Below, in pieces: positions 2,936 through 15,155 of a DNA stretch of 20,000 nucleotides. The number at the start of each line of letters is the position of its first letter. The stretch's first letter is position 1. The translations under genes and the position numbers were made by a program. Source of the stretch: an uncultured virus (IMG/VR IMGVR_UViG_3300009155_000057) (taxonomy: Duplodnaviria; Heunggongvirae; Uroviricota; Caudoviricetes); IMG/VR virus record IMGVR_UViG_3300009155_000057. One strand, given 5' to 3'. The notes under the pieces were generated by a model. The model ran no database searches. It was not told the DNA's origin and worked only from the letters and a program-made list of their open reading frames with translations.

Positions 2936-3022
2936 GGGAGAGACGCGGAACGGGTATCCGCACCAGACTGTAAATCTGGCCCTCATAGAGGATTGTAAGT
3001 TCGAGCCTCACCTCTCCCACCA
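2936..3022 (+). tRNA. tRNA-Tyr(GTA)
   Basis: GGGAGAG/CTCTCCC, CCAGA-CT GTA AA-TCTGG, long variable arm, CCA. One T-stem mismatch. Confidence 0.9.
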
Positions 3023-3208: not shown

Positions 3209-3284
3209 GGGTTGTTAGCTCAGTTGGTAGAGCGGCGGACATCAGGGCGCCACGTCGCAGGTTCGATCCCTGCACAACCCACCA
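3209..3284 (+). tRNA. tRNA-Lys-like body with aberrant anticodon arm (positional anticodon TCA)
   Basis: 76 nt with perfect acceptor GGGTTGT/ACAACCC, D arm GCTC-AGTTGGTA-GAGC, T arm and CCA. The anticodon region GGCGGACATCAGGGCGCC does not pair in the canonical register. Confidence 0.75.
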
Positions 3285-3292
3285 CTTCATAC

Positions 3293-3358
3293 GGGGTGTC
3301 TACTCATTAGGAGTAAATGACCGGTCAGTATCAGGTTGAAATCCTGAGCAACCCTCCA
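3293..3358 (+). ncRNA. 66-nt anticodon-less tRNA-like RNA
   Basis: GGGGTGT/GCAACCC-T-CCA, TACTC-ATTAG-GAGTA arm, TGACCGGTCA mini-palindrome, TCAGG-TTGAAAT-CCTGA T-like arm. Confidence 0.7.
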
Positions 3359-3364
3359 CTTTAT

Positions 3365-3458
3365 GCGCCCATATCGGAACTGCCTTCTAAGCAGGTGCTC
3401 ATCGTAGAGTAAACCCCGTAATTGGATTATGTAGGTTCGAGTCCTACTGGGCGTACCA
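3365..3458 (+). tRNA. Rearranged tRNA-Arg(TCT): no D arm, ~35-nt expanded variable region
   Basis: GCGCCCA/TGGGCGT-A-CCA, only TATCGGAA before CTGC-CT TCT AA-GCAG, then TGCTC-ATCGTA-GAGTA and CCG-TAATTGGATTAT, perfect T arm. Confidence 0.75.
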
Positions 3459-3645: not shown

Positions 3646-3720
3646 GCACCCATGGTCAATTGGTTAAGACGCTGGATTTTCACTCCGGAATGGCGGGTTC
3701 GAGTCCTACTGGGCGTACCA
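3646..3720 (+). tRNA. Chimeric tRNA-Glu(TTC) with a 3' end from the Arg(TCT) gene
   Basis: The 5' part is nearly identical to the 2852 Glu gene. The 3' 25 nt are identical to the Arg(TCT) end, giving mismatches in the acceptor and T stems. Confidence 0.8.
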
Positions 3721-4583: not shown

Positions 4584-4666
4584 GGGATGCTAGCTTAATG
4601 GCAGAGCGGGCCCGTGGAGGCCCGTGGAGGGCCGAGATATAGGTTCGATCCCTATGCATACCCACC
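4584..4666 (+). ncRNA. tRNA-like RNA or pseudo-tRNA with a tandem 10-nt duplication in the anticodon arm
   Basis: GGGATGC/GCATACCC (bulged), GCTT/GAGC D stem, CCCGTGGAGG x2 (4611-4630), ATAGG-TTCGATC-CCTAT. Confidence 0.65.
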
Positions 4667-5217: not shown

Positions 5218-5538
5218 ATGAGCTTCACTATGAAGTTTGTTTGCTGTGAAGTTGATGATGCTGAGGAAATTATTCCAAACTCTGGTTGCGGTGAGGTAGA
5301 TCATCTTCATTTGGATCTGTACAATTACATTGATACAGCTGGTGAAGGTCTTTATGTTACCCTCAAAAATGACGGAACAGTCTTCTTTAAGGAAGAACAA
5401 TCCTGGTATCATCCAAGTTATTGGGATCAATCCAAGCTCATTGAGATTGTTAAGAGCACCACCAACAAGAAGTACTCTCTTGATTTTGGTCAATGTCCCA
5501 ATTGTGGTGAATGCGCTCTTGTTGAATATAGTGAATAA
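5218..5538 (+). CDS. Hypothetical acidic protein with C-terminal CPNCG
   Basis: AAGGAG RBS, 106-aa ORF. Confidence 0.75.
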   Translation: MSFTMKFVCCEVDDAEEIIPNSGCGEVDHLHLDLYNYIDTAGEGLYVTLKNDGTVFFKEEQSWYHPSYWDQSKLIEIVKSTTNKKYSLDFGQCPNCGECALVEYSE

Positions 5539-5580
5539 GATTAATTGTAATTGAGCAAAATTTGCTCTTACAAACTAAGT

Positions 5581-5749
5581 TTGGCAGTAGCTCAAGAGAT
5601 GATATGGAATCCTCGCGCAAGGTTCTGTATTGTTACGATATCCAGAAAAATTTTTAGTGTGGGTCGACACACATTAGACATCTTTTGGAGAATGCTTAGA
5701 GCACCATTCCGCGGAGGGGTGGAGATGATGCACAGTGCATCCTGTTCAA
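5581..5749 (+). ncRNA. ~170-nt tRNA-shaped RNA with two long hairpins inserted in the D loop
   Basis: GGCAG/CTGTT, TA-GCTC(5590)...GAGC(5699), GU-rich hairpins 5598-5634 and 5641-5689, CCATTCC-GCGGA-GGGGTGG, GATGC-ACAGT-GCATC. Confidence 0.6.
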
Positions 5750-5753
5750 TAAT

Positions 5754-5829
5754 GGGAGGTTAGCTCAGTCGGGAGAGCAATAGCCTTACAAGCTATGGGT
5801 CATTGGTTCGAACCCAATACCTCCCACCA
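5754..5829 (+). tRNA. tRNA-Val(TAC)
   Basis: GGGAGGT/ACCTCCC, ATAGC-CT TAC AA-GCTAT, CCA. Confidence 0.93.
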
Positions 5830-5846: not shown

Positions 5847-5922
5847 TGCAGGTTGGTGAAGTGGCCTACCACGAGCGGGTTCATACTTGCTTTATTCATC
5901 GGTTCGAATCCGATACCTGCTA
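5847..5922 (+). tRNA. tRNA-Met(CAT), anticodon arm out of register by 1 nt
   Basis: TGCAGGT/ACCTGCT, AGCGGG-TTCATA-CTTGCT, ATCGG-TTCGAAT-CCGAT. Confidence 0.75.
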
Positions 5923-5927
5923 CCGCT

Positions 5928-6755: not shown

Positions 6756-7175
6756 ATGAAAACTTTGGTTTTAAATGAAAAGTTCCCACTTCAATTTCAA
6801 CATAACATTACAGCACATTGTGGAACTTTCTATGATGTAGAGATTAACACATCAGATAAAAATGATTTTCTTCTTAATGTAATAGGTAAGGCAATTACTA
6901 TTGTTACACAAAATGGTCATTGTTTTCGCTGGAATGAAGACTCATTTTCGTTACTGATGAGTGATTATGTTTTTGACCCACCTGATTGGTGGCCAAGAAA
7001 AGAAGTTGAAGTTGAGGAAGTTTTGCCATTCTTTCCTCGTATGAAGGCATGGCTGGCGGGCCAACCAAAAACTCGTCTCGTAAAGAAAACGGTCTATGAT
7101 GATTATGTAGAGCTTGAAGGATATTACAACTTCACTATTCCAGTAACACAAATTAAAGTGATTAAGGATCAATAA
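6756..7175 (+). CDS. Hypothetical protein
   Basis: AAGGA RBS, 139-aa ORF. Confidence 0.75.
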   Translation: MKTLVLNEKFPLQFQHNITAHCGTFYDVEINTSDKNDFLLNVIGKAITIVTQNGHCFRWNEDSFSLLMSDYVFDPPDWWPRKEVEVEEVLPFFPRMKAWLAGQPKTRLVKKTVYDDYVELEGYYNFTIPVTQIKVIKDQ

Positions 7176-7199
7176 CCATTTAACAAATCATTTAAAACA

Positions 7200-7875
7200 A
7201 TGAAACAAATGAATACTATTGAAACATTTTTAGAAAATAAAAACAAACTAACATCAGAAATTTCAAAAGCTATCAAAGATAAATAATGCTTACGCTAAAC
7301 AAAGACTGAAAACTAGTGAAAGAAAAACGTTAATCTCAGAATTTATTAATTCTGAGCTCAAGAAAGAAATCAAAGAATTTGCTGAGAAAAACAACTACGG
7401 TCACATCTTTGATTATGAAGATCATGTGAGATACACATCTCAAAATACAACAAATCCATACACAAGAAGTTACATCCCTTATTTTTCCATGAAGCAATCT
7501 GGTTGGTTTTGTTTCTTTCAAGACGGTAAGCAGCCACATTTATATCATGAGTATACAATCTCTTGGAGATATAGACTCTATCCTGAGAAATCTAAATCGT
7601 CGGAAGAAACTGAAAGAACTCTTCGTAAGAAGTTTAGGTTTGTTCATATCAAAACTATTGATATGCAAAAAATTAAAGATGAATTACGTTCTGCTATGAT
7701 CAATAACAATCTTGATCCAAGTGACCTGAGTTCTTTAGGTTATGATTACTCTCGTTATTACAAAGATAATAACTACAAAGATTTTTATAACAAAGCTTAT
7801 TCCATTCTTGCAAAGAACAATTTGAACTCAATTTTATCTTCAGCGTTTATTTATGACTTTGTTAAAGTAACTTAG
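7200..7875 (+). pseudogene. Hypothetical protein with a +1 frameshift near 7252-7284
   Basis: MKQMNTIETFLENKNKLTSEISKAIKDK* continues in the +1 frame (NNAYAKQRLKTSERKTLISEF...) into ORF 7426-7875. Confidence 0.6.
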
Positions 7876-8399: not shown

Positions 8400-8431
8400 T
8401 GAGGGAAAGGAATTAACGTTCCTTTCCCTCA
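8400..8431. terminator. Strong hairpin at the convergence of the tRNA array and the minus-strand gene
   Basis: TGAGGGAAAGGAA-TTAACG-TTCCTTTCCCTCA, 13-bp perfect stem. Confidence 0.7.
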
Positions 8432-9397
8432 AGCTAATTCACACATCACAATAGCTGTAACTGAAGTGTTGCTAAACAAGTCTTTAACAACCTCATCAGG
8501 GTATAGTTTATCCCAAATTTCATTTTGTTTTTTAAATTCTGGCCCGCTAAGATCAAATGATCGATTTAAAAGATTGAATTTGACAGCTGTTATTTTTAGA
8601 TTTTTCCCCATAATAACTTCAGATTCATCATAATTGCTCGCCGCTGAAACATCGCTTCCATAAAGACAATCTTTAACTTTGAGAATGATTGCACAATCTT
8701 GGTTACTGTCAGCAGCAAATTGTTTTGCTGTTTGTCCATCGGTTGTCCAAGAAGAAATTGGAAAATTCTTAAATTGAATTCCTGCTTTTAAATTCATGCC
8801 TACAGCTTCTGTCAATCCAATTCCTCGATAAAGATTTTGTGGTCCCATTCTGTTTTTGGTTTGAGCAGCAAATTGCAAAATTTTCTTTGCGTTTCTATAA
8901 TCTTCTCTAGTAGGCATAATTTCTTTATATGGGCTGTCATTGTGCTTAATTGCCTGAGATTGCCAACTTTCATACCCTGAAGGCTTTCTAATAGTGCTAA
9001 CACTTCCTGACGTGAATAAAAGAAATGAATAAAAAATAGAAGCAAGATTAGCGTCTAGTTTTTCATTTTTCTTATAGCCTGTTGAATACCAACGGTTGAC
9101 ATCGTCATTAACATAAGTTGAGATGGCATCATAAAAGTCTCCTTTGTCGGAGTCCAGTTTATTGTAAAAATAATCAAACATTTCTTCGGTTGGTTCTTTA
9201 ACTTTAATCAAAGCTTCGTTTACGCTTCTAAGAAAAGCTGGAATAGATTTTCCGTTGAAGCGTTTTGTAGATAGCTCTTTATAAATTGCCAAAGCAACAT
9301 TGGAAGTTGATGAAGAAAGATCGACATTACGTTCAGAAAATCTAAATTCTTTTAGCAATCGATTCAAAATTCTGATTTCAAGATTTTCATTTTTCAT
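8429..9397 (-). CDS. Putative mono-ADP-ribosyltransferase (R-S-E / VIP2-like C-terminal domain)
   Basis: LYRG, FPISSWTTD..AKQFA and ESEV occur in the expected order and spacing. Likely start MKNENLEIRILNRLLKE (the ORF track extends to 9424). Confidence 0.7.
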   Translation of the reverse strand: MKNENLEIRILNRLLKEFRFSERNVDLSSSTSNVALAIYKELSTKRFNGKSIPAFLRSVNEALIKVKEPTEEMFDYFYNKLDSDKGDFYDAISTYVNDDVNRWYSTGYKKNEKLDANLASIFYSFLLFTSGSVSTIRKPSGYESWQSQAIKHNDSPYKEIMPTREDYRNAKKILQFAAQTKNRMGPQNLYRGIGLTEAVGMNLKAGIQFKNFPISSWTTDGQTAKQFAADSNQDCAIILKVKDCLYGSDVSAASNYDESEVIMGKNLKITAVKFNLLNRSFDLSGPEFKKQNEIWDKLYPDEVVKDLFSNTSVTAIVMCELA

Positions 9398-9443
9398 AAC
9401 TTTAATTATTTCAAAAAACGCCAACTAATATTTTTTTGCAAGT

Positions 9444-14537: not shown

Positions 14538-15155
14538 ATGAAACAATATCCTTCGATTAGCCATCTAACAAAAAAGACAAACCTCAATGACACGTACTAT
14601 GTGTTTGATAAGCTTGATGGATCAAATGTGCGGGTCGTCGTAGACAAGGAAGCAATCAAGAGCGGCATTCTTACAAAGCTTGGAAAGCGTAGCGGTTTGC
14701 TTGATGACAAAACCCCGTTTCTGATTGAGTCAAAAGACCTTATCTCTGCTCTTAGCAAGAATCTAATCCGAATGGTAAAAGATTCTAAGTGGCAAGAAGC
14801 AACTTTCTTTTTTGAATTTTATGGAGATTCCTCTTTCTCAGGAGCTCACTTTGATGAGCCTCATAAAGTCTCCTTGATTGATATTGACGTTTATAAAAAG
14901 GGAATCCTGCCCCCAGATCAGTTTTTGCCGCTGGCTGCAGCTTACAATATCCCTTATGCAAGGATGCTTCGCATTGGTAACATTGATGAAAACTTCCAAA
15001 AGAGTGTTGAAGATTCAACAGTTGAAGGCATGACTTTCGAAGGAGTTGTTTGTAAAAACAACACCAGCACATTTAAAATCAAAAGTAAGGCCTGGCTTGC
15101 AAAGCTAAAAGAAAAGTGTGGGGATGATGAGGAATTGTTCTCTAAGCTTCGATAA
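14538..15155 (+). CDS. ATP-dependent RNA ligase-like protein (Rnl2-type nucleotidyltransferase domain)
   Basis: Motif I DKLDGSN, motif III FEFYG, IIIa LIDI, IV EGVVCK, V FKIKS. Confidence 0.75.
   Translation: MKQYPSISHLTKKTNLNDTYYVFDKLDGSNVRVVVDKEAIKSGILTKLGKRSGLLDDKTPFLIESKDLISALSKNLIRMVKDSKWQEATFFFEFYGDSSFSGAHFDEPHKVSLIDIDVYKKGILPPDQFLPLAAAYNIPYARMLRIGNIDENFQKSVEDSTVEGMTFEGVVCKNNTSTFKIKSKAWLAKLKEKCGDDEELFSKLR

Follow-up and report, generated by a model that had tools for sequence, protein, structure and literature searches.

The window, by which we mean the whole stretch of 20,000 nucleotides analysed here, is part of the genome of a large freshwater phage. The sequencing runs that contain the stretch are labelled mostly as freshwater, lake or aquatic metagenomes. 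ARAGORN finds 25 tRNA genes in the window, between positions 1618 and 8388 and all on the plus strand, and among the proteins encoded in the window are a RadA-like ATPase, an HNH endonuclease, an RNA ligase (14538-15155, from protein family searches) and a NadM-Nudix enzyme. The RadA-like gene has many relatives in viral contigs of 200-320 kb, where tRNAs often adjoin it. The HNH gene (2464-2808, from PHROGs and Pfam searches) is free-standing. A promoter-like motif, TGCAA-N17-TAnnnT, mostly with TGG preceding the second box, recurs at 633, 1481, 1725, 9444, 14956, 16240 and 18461. On the minus strand, opposite to the cluster, the ORF at 8429-9424 has a weak match (E 0.0005) to phrog_832, a family of phage RNA-polymerase ADP-ribosylases.

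Within this cluster, at 5581-5749 of the plus strand, lies a tRNA-shaped non-coding RNA gene of 169 nt, recognised from its fold and from variant alleles at the same site and called by neither ARAGORN nor Rfam. The adjacent gene, tRNA-Val(TAC) (5754-5829; called by ARAGORN and scored at 71.4 bits by Rfam), begins 4 nt after its end, and both the neighbour and the 4-nt distance are the same in the three homologous loci found, L052, L057 and L060. The 5′ strand of an acceptor-like stem (5581-5587) pairs with 5742-5749, leaving one bulged U at 5745. It is followed at 5588-5594 by TAGCTCA, that is, U8-A9, the 5′ strand of the D stem (GCTC, 5590-5593) and A14, in agreement with the tRNA D-arm consensus; the plus strand of the window has seven copies of this heptamer, of which five occupy the same place in tRNAs called by ARAGORN. 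Two hairpins lie in the D loop, which has a length of 105 nt: H1 (5598-5634), with 15 bp, including five G-U pairs, and a 6-nt loop, and H2 (5641-5689), irregular, with about 16-20 bp. The linker between them (5635-5640) is unpaired in the fold and invariant relative to L057. The terminal loop of H2 (5662-5669) displays a self-complementary GTCGAC (5663-5668) that is invariant in all three alleles. The segment 5690-5703 comprises the 3′ side of the D loop, without G18G19, the 3′ strand of the D stem (GAGC, 5699-5702) and A26. An anticodon-position arm of 7 bp (5704-5722) bears a 5-nt loop, GCGGA, that has no U33. The segment 5723-5741 consists of a 4-nt variable region, AGAT, and a T-position arm (5727-5741), which can be drawn as 5 bp with the loop ACAGT or, alternatively, as 6 bp plus 3 nt, the loop having no TΨC. 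The acceptor-like stem's 3′ strand, without an encoded CCA, and the 4-nt spacer complete the element and its junction with tRNA-Val (5742-5753). The earlier note on this DNA had listed these parts, and each is found where it had placed it, 4 nt before tRNA-Val.

The unconstrained minimum-energy fold of 5581-5749 is this cloverleaf, with H1 and H2 in the D loop, at -50.5 kcal/mol. The stability of the whole element, for which the earlier note had proposed a z-score check, is only modestly above chance (z -1.97, with 9 of 200 shuffles as good), and the minus strand gives z -1.78. In the window allele, the inner three pairs of the acceptor stem have probabilities of 0.95-0.97, given the one bulged U that the stem requires, and the outer pairs, tested in two G-U pairings, are weak (0.64 and 0.25). 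The junction spacing is that of canonical tRNA throughout: a 7-bp acceptor, U8-R9, a 4-bp D stem, one nucleotide, the anticodon-position arm, a short variable region and a 5-bp T stem abutting the acceptor. A strict descriptor of this geometry and of the D-arm sequence gave nine matches in 3.2 Mb, four of them copies of the element and five spans across adjacent real tRNAs; a looser one gave 16 in 3.5 Mb (four copies, six overlapping tRNAs and six unrelated, far from tRNAs). Neither descriptor matched any of 400 shuffles of the 7-kb cluster, a chance control that is lenient in that both were written after the element had been seen. Since the D-arm consensus flanks the insert at both ends, with tRNA spacing to all stems, geometry plus sequence is a stronger argument against chance than the stability of the fold. 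An origin from a fused tandem tRNA pair was rejected: read across neighbouring tRNAs, the apparent D loop comes to 90-91 nt rather than 105-108 nt, and a T-loop-like hexamer in H2 is out of register. A CsrA-type GGA loop was likewise discarded, as it is absent from the variants. Apart from the self-palindrome, the search for intramolecular loop-loop pairing found, as the one complement common to all alleles, a 4-bp match between the linker and the tip of H2, which is out of reach.

The window motif search found no sigma-70 promoter of the phage motif on the plus strand directly upstream of the element, and we therefore infer that it is co-transcribed with the tRNA operon. A TAnnTTTG at 5576 was considered as a promoter of its own and dropped, since it is one of 26 such matches in the window and the promoters of the phage look sigma-70-like. 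Just upstream, also on the plus strand, there is an inverted repeat (5545-5573); 41 of 42 spacer bases are equal in L057, the single change in the repeat gives a G-U pair, and the hairpin forms in the centroid fold of the element with its flanks. This repeat may be a leader hairpin or a protein site. Its arms, GAGCAAA/TTTGCTC, are shared with another inverted repeat at 2281-2317, which is very stable (z -7.2), and the two are possibly a common protein site or processing hairpin.

When JGI metagenomes were scanned with a gapped pattern, 11 matches came up, of which L052, L057 and L060 are homologues and the other eight are chance matches or tandem tRNAs. The L052 element is identical to that of the window, within 8.8 kb of 99.98% identity, and is therefore not independent. 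L057 (2181-2353) and L060 (382-554) are variant alleles at the same site, so that there are three distinct alleles in all, two of them close to each other, which amounts to one real comparison. Differences of the L057 type are also present in contigs of two lake RNA libraries. Relative to L057, the element has 18 substitutions (12 of them transitions) and four single-base insertions. The substitutions number 0 in 17 positions of the 5′ frame, 10 in 37 of H1, 0 in 6 of the linker, 5 in 49 of H2 and 3 in 60 of the 3′ frame; frame plus linker is changed at 3 of 83 positions and the hairpins at 15 of 86 (P 0.005). H1 is the fastest-changing part, outpacing the fourfold sites of four ORFs (18 of 162 differ; P 0.018), and the frame (3 of 77) is not significantly different from those sites (P 0.09). 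The tRNAs of the cluster differ from their L057 counterparts by 0-7%, except for the Met-like gene at 5847.

In a structure-guided alignment of the window with L057, nine pairs differ and eight remain canonical, seven by swaps between G-U and Watson-Crick pairs and one, 5606-5626, by change on both sides; the sole broken pair, 5728-5740 in the T-position arm, is A-C in both L057 and L060. The eight other substitutions fall in loops, bulges or mismatches. Retention of eight of nine pairs has P 0.0004-0.014 at a transition bias of 2-8, P 0.0015-0.04 when site 5656 is scored as broken and P 0.07-0.16 in the transitions-only limit. Within H1, six of six changed pairs are retained, one with both sides changed, the gap in H1 being placed by structure; the MAFFT placement of that gap gives no two-sided change. 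In H2 of L060, one G-C pair is gained and the terminal pair is lost. RNAalifold returns a different terminal fold and no two-sided change, from three sequences, which are too few to decide. Across the three alleles, H1 alone has z -2.7 to -3.6 and H2 alone z -2.2 to -4.0, and in each allele the plus strand of the insert outdoes the minus strand in folding energy by 7-11 kcal/mol. H1 and H2 look selected as plus-strand RNA, and because the plus strand carries G-U rather than A-C, the selected form would be RNA rather than a DNA cruciform. The earlier note had read selection on RNA structure from many G-U pairs; the selection on the plus strand is supported, but the richness in G-U belongs mainly to H1 (5 of 15 pairs). 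It had also named, beforehand, a lack of structural conservation as the outcome that would tell against an RNA, and the eight retained pairs point the other way. The register of the GTCGAC loop has probabilities of 0.98, 0.55 and 0.64 in the three alleles, and the GTCGAC self-duplex is worth -10.3 kcal/mol; an exposed palindrome arises by chance with a probability of about 5-6%. Such a loop presumably recalls the kissing-loop sites through which RNAs dimerise.

The frame that carries these hairpins is tRNA-derived and nearly invariant, and it is less secure as a fold. The acceptor and D stems are invariant in all three alleles and so show no covariation, and the one frame pair that does change is broken. 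The probability of the cloverleaf in the ensemble is about 0.89 in the window, 0.28 in L057, where it is level with an alternative terminal helix, and 0.012 in L060, so that it is a minority fold in the two variants; for the D stem, the values are 0.92, 0.35 and 0.01. When flanking sequence is included, the minimum-energy fold loses the D and acceptor stems, whereas the centroid retains most of them. The anticodon-position arm still forms in L057 and L060 with a changed loop and one inserted base; its loop has 5 nt in the window and 3 or 5 nt in the variants, and in both allele types it can be read as what we take to be a GNRNA pentaloop. The T loop and CCA are features that tRNA-processing enzymes use, and since the frame has neither, it is a doubtful substrate for them. 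The suggestion of the earlier note that the tRNA frame is there for processing and stability is accordingly no more than a conjecture, given also the low share of the cloverleaf in the variants. Measured against the canonical features of tRNA set out in the available portion of PMC7609411, the alleles compared lack the loop signatures, having neither G18G19 nor TΨC, no anticodon loop of 7 nt with U33 and no CCA; the elbow formed by G18G19 and TΨC is missing from all three. A covariance model made from the three alleles and a supplied cloverleaf aligns real tRNA genes in register while skipping about 102-107 model positions, a likeness to tRNA that is partly built in by the given structure. In the window, four of its top five non-self matches are tRNAs, each with E above 0.29, and a tRNA-like gene in L150/L153, which was not selected by motif, scores 21.1 bits (E 0.003-0.005).

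At least three more tRNA bodies in this cluster have no anticodon that could be used. That at 1618-1688 has a normal T loop and, in the anticodon position, a 10-bp arm with a 3-nt loop (z -3.2); its ARAGORN call as Leu(CAG) is probably wrong, and 1549-1689 has a weak Rfam match to DUF2693 (E 0.88). At 3209-3284, the D loop, T loop and CCA of a tRNA body are intact and the anticodon arm is disrupted, so that ARAGORN cannot assign it. The tRNA-like 3293-3358 has a D-like hairpin, a tiny middle arm and a T-like arm and folds no better than shuffles (z -0.14). In the tRNA at 3365-3458, the anticodon arm (TCT) follows directly on the acceptor strand, without a D arm; this type occurs at nine IMG/VR loci, eight of them beside ARAGORN tRNAs, and the window copy adds a variable-region hairpin. 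The tRNA-Glu at 3646-3720 looks like a recombinant, with a mismatched T stem and a last 25 or so bases that repeat the 3′ end of the 3365 gene. In the body at 4584-4666, the loop at the anticodon position has 5 nt, and there is a tandem duplication of 10 nt, which is absent from L057 and from run X19. The Met-like tRNA at 5847-5924 has an altered anticodon arm and 11 substitutions relative to the normal CAT tRNA at the corresponding position of L057. Between tRNA-Ala and tRNA-Thr, the gene-free interval 1960-2095 contains the repeated 9-mer CGTAATCAC and is possibly a further structured RNA.

Unusual bodies also occur among the tRNAs of other large phages. The tRNA cluster of an unrelated phage of 480 kb contains a cloverleaf of 75 nt, L032 2994-3068 (the same as L183 394-468; z -5.2). 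It has CCA, its D loop lacks GG, the loop at the anticodon position is of 5 nt and TΨC is absent; ARAGORN and Rfam both miss it, and phage records give no match to it. The 8 nt of its D loop are identical to the 8 nt that follow the D stem in L057. On the minus strand of L003 and L008, at about 2952-3019, there is a 68-nt tRNA-like body (z -0.2 and -1.6) whose D loop is rich in purines and whose middle arm is very short. The compact pattern is present in only these 3 of 48 records (L032, L003 and L008), which were fetched by D-arm-motif patterns, so that this likeness is due partly to selection and establishes no homology. Read by eye, L146 (about 7150-7255 and 8513-8750) and L154 (8244-8490 and 8653-8996) have uncalled structured RNAs between their tRNAs: a tRNA frame whose anticodon position is taken up by several hairpins, two multi-stem RNAs related to each other, and a gene that resembles tmRNA.

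The element itself is so far limited to one narrow lineage. In a blastn search of phage records, a 901-nt region matched through tRNA-Val only, and the element alone gave one 24-nt chance match; the L057 allele had no match in plasmid records. Pattern searches of IMG/VR found it in 0 of 14, 0 of 35 and 0 of 35 loci, a further pattern gave no match, and none of the five GTDB genomes retrieved by pattern holds a homologue. Neighbouring proteins used as single baits yielded no IMG/VR loci; the protein encoded immediately upstream belongs to a cluster with 25 members. An alignment search with the RadA-like protein kept 80 of 123 confirmed loci, at 48-58% identity, and the element model matched none of these 80 distant relatives and none of 38 whole records, most of which are fragments, so that absence from these relatives does not follow. 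Nine other large-phage tRNA loci gave no full-length match.

What, then, is this gene? The ORF at 5551-5763 of the plus strand, an open frame of 70 codons, could in principle be a small protein gene with a chance fold, but it starts with TTG, overlaps into tRNA-Val and has no PHROGs or Pfam match, and the four single-base insertions shift it and stop it at 62 codons in both variant alleles. Since it is frameshifted in both, it is spurious and not coding; the coding test that the earlier note had set for its non-coding reading leaves that reading standing, and a protein gene is hardly credible. The same note had offered, as a second reading, a tRNA gene with an intervening sequence, which finds no support. 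Such a gene would contain a D-loop intron, spliced to give a mature tRNA, as has been proposed for the enigmatic introns in Lak phage tRNAs, or for archaeal D-loop introns. The exon spacing is that of a class I tRNA, the window encodes the RNA ligase noted above, phage tRNA introns are reported in the accessible part of PMC6784885, and all three alleles allow a loose bulge-helix-bulge to be drawn over the insert; however, that motif also appears in 694 and 648 of 2000 shuffles, with a pair probability of at most 0.016 for its central helix. Moreover, exons without a 7-nt anticodon loop, G18G19, TΨC and CCA make no working tRNA, the anticodon-position loop differs in length between alleles, and Rfam has no group I or group II intron match. 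RNA evidence comes from contigs of three of six RNA runs, from three studies, and of one of the 14 DNA runs listed. The element sequence is unspliced in the RNA-library contigs of all three studies: contigs of two RNA libraries and of the DNA library cross the whole of it, and in the third RNA library overlapping contigs cover 5229-5735. A joint that skips the insert is found in none of the four runs, in contigs, which can drop rare or short forms. No strand, ends or level can be read from the RNA contigs, which may also hold DNA, and although the depth of one RNA contig at 5605-5735 is 38.5 and that of the contig upstream 9.3, expression cannot be ranked by the depth of contigs. We regard a spliced tRNA gene as very improbable, and we judge no more kindly the suggestion that the element is a Y-RNA-like partner, of the YrlA type, of the Ro60/Rsr protein. 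The available text of PMC4201824 describes phage-encoded YrlA RNAs (RF02553) with tRNA-like domains, in which, as here, a tRNA-derived module is joined to an extra helical domain, and the loop of H2 resembles part of the Ro-binding motif. Yet the GNCGAA motif (GNCGAAN0-1G near the 5′ end of YrlA in that part of PMC4201824) is absent from all three alleles, there is no T loop, the arms follow the order of tRNA rather than the permuted T-acceptor-D order of YrlA, no YrlA or YrlB match was found over the element in Rfam searches at E up to 1 and up to 10, and no TROVE gene occurs among the 35 window ORFs scanned, including those within 4 kb.

Two further explanations accept the tRNA ancestry and deny the element a function as a discrete molecule. 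According to one, it is a dead tRNA gene, disabled by inserted mobile hairpins (the scar of a homing endonuclease or of a palindrome cassette) and now drifting. The HNH gene inside the cluster speaks for it, as do the damaged or chimeric look of other cluster members and the short GC-rich hairpin that variants have in the anticodon-position arm. However, the HNH gene, the nearest to the element, is 2.8 kb away, and the inserts are AU-rich and long and occur once in 155 loci plus the window, with no match for the window allele in phage records or for the L057 allele in plasmid records; no GC-rich palindrome recurring at other tRNA loops, and no intact copy with an adjoining nuclease, was found, nor does an intact duplicate gene adjoin. 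By 7 to 1, the changes on the plus strand also lean to G-U rather than A-C, which indicates selection at the RNA level, and we consider a dead gene quite improbable. According to the other, the hairpins would act in cis, inside the polycistronic tRNA precursor, as a processing or stabilising spacer, for instance by offering duplexes of the kind that RNase III cuts, or by blocking exonucleases, in front of tRNA-Val, -Met and -His; the frame would be a relic, and no discrete RNA would accumulate. In its favour, the structural signal is carried by the hairpins and not by the frame, the cloverleaf is weak in two alleles, RNA-library contigs span from the upstream ORF through the element into tRNA-Val, and H2 is an irregular duplex of a size that we take to be cut by RNase III. 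Against it stand the exact tRNA junction spacing in three of three alleles, a frame that changes less than the hairpins (P 0.005) and the fact that the 5′ end of tRNA-Val needs RNase P only. This spacer is the likeliest of the rival explanations, though we think it unlikely.

The locus encodes a non-coding RNA with tRNA-type spacing, in which the pairing of H1 and H2 is kept across alleles and whose place before tRNA-Val is fixed. We think it rather probable that the large freshwater phage has here a stable RNA that derives from tRNA, does not decode and is similar in general kind to T4 RNA C. The element would be transcribed with the tRNA operon. RNase P cuts at the mature 5′ end of tRNA-Val, and the cut by the host enzyme would free the 3′ end of the element with a 4-nt tail, while another cut, or an exonuclease stopping at the terminal stem, would make its 5′ end. 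The molecule would then be closed and shielded by the old tRNA stems. Decoding is beyond an RNA that has no anticodon, elbow or CCA, and this one would stay out of translation. Up to this point, that is, as a discrete functional RNA, the proposal seems to us reasonably probable. The D-loop domain may be the working part, its hairpins displayed to a protein partner. Because the sequence of H1 changes fast and its shape is kept, it is tempting to see in the H1 duplex a surface bound by a host protein under conflict, as decoy or ligand, and the palindromic loop of H2 may let two copies of the RNA pair; the decoy role is a tentative suggestion, possible but on balance doubtful.

Taken further, it may be that phages have a class of RNA that keeps the four-way helical skeleton of tRNA, drops every loop signature and uses the D loop as a display site, here for a fast-evolving duplex aimed at a host protein and a palindromic kissing loop that makes dimers, with L032 2994-3068 as an insert-free form. 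This generalisation is speculative, and we would not expect it to hold as it stands. If it were true, such skeleton-only RNAs would be invisible both to tRNA finders and to enzymes that read the elbow. In any case, RNA genes that lie within phage tRNA clusters escape standard tRNA and Rfam scans.

How does the element compare with known systems? In tmRNA, the acceptor, T loop and CCA are kept and the insert sits where the anticodon would be, and GOLLD and ROOL are several times the size of the element. Over the element, ARAGORN calls no tmRNA, and Rfam gives no match to tmRNA, GOLLD or ROOL. These are likewise non-decoding structured RNAs that lie among tRNAs or resemble them in phages (from the portion of PMC5737381 at hand). 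The five tRNA-like viral candidates in the available main text of PMC10690425 overlap ARAGORN calls, whereas the element does not. Full-text literature searches, in a library short of subscription papers, turned up no account of the element, or of a tRNA frame in a phage that has a D-loop domain but lacks the T loop, although the supplements of PMC10690425, with 10,006 candidate viral RNAs, could include it. Phage tRNAs are discussed, in the accessible text of PMC13096335, as decoys or supplements against tRNA-cutting defences, the molecules in question being real tRNAs. The tRNAs of Lak megaphages, as far as the available part of PMC6784885 describes them, share with the element a phage tRNA frame and a long insert, and one Lak insert may be tRNA-like. 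Their exons, however, have an assigned isotype and anticodon, and intron-less versions exist, whereas the exons of the element make no tRNA, and no insert-free allele of it was found. According to the same part of PMC6784885, Lak introns are nearly identical across cohorts, whereas the insert of the element is its most variable part.

The closest parallel is T4 RNA C, a late RNA whose function is given as unknown in the available text of PMC9697503. We fetched rnaC (NC_000866 70908-71046; 139 nt, species 1) and folded it: the fold (z -4.4) has an acceptor-like stem, a D position filled by one long hairpin of irregular pairing, an anticodon-less arm of 10 bp and a canonical T arm. Both RNAs lie in a phage tRNA cluster, on the strand of the tRNAs, and both combine a tRNA frame with an oversized D-position domain and no anticodon. 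The element had been presented in the earlier note as a possible new class of non-coding RNA; as T4 RNA C shares its general plan, that was an overstatement. The two are different in detail. T4 rnaC keeps a canonical T loop (TTCGAAT), whereas the element has none; in rnaC, one long hairpin replaces the D arm, whereas the element keeps a 4-bp D stem and has two hairpins in the D loop; rnaC folds far more strongly (z -4.4 versus -2.0); and rnaC is present in 744 phage records, whereas the element is known from three alleles. The covariance model of the element does not match T4 rnaC, so that sequence homology between them finds no support. Look-alikes of tRNA have been known in phages since T4 RNA C and are still without a function. 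The element separates the parts of such a molecule, for its tRNA stems are kept, its loops are gone and its extra domain changes fast with its shape kept. If it is stable without a T loop or CCA, then mimicry toward RNase P, synthetases or the ribosome would not be the point of the class to which it and T4 RNA C would belong; the extra domain would be.
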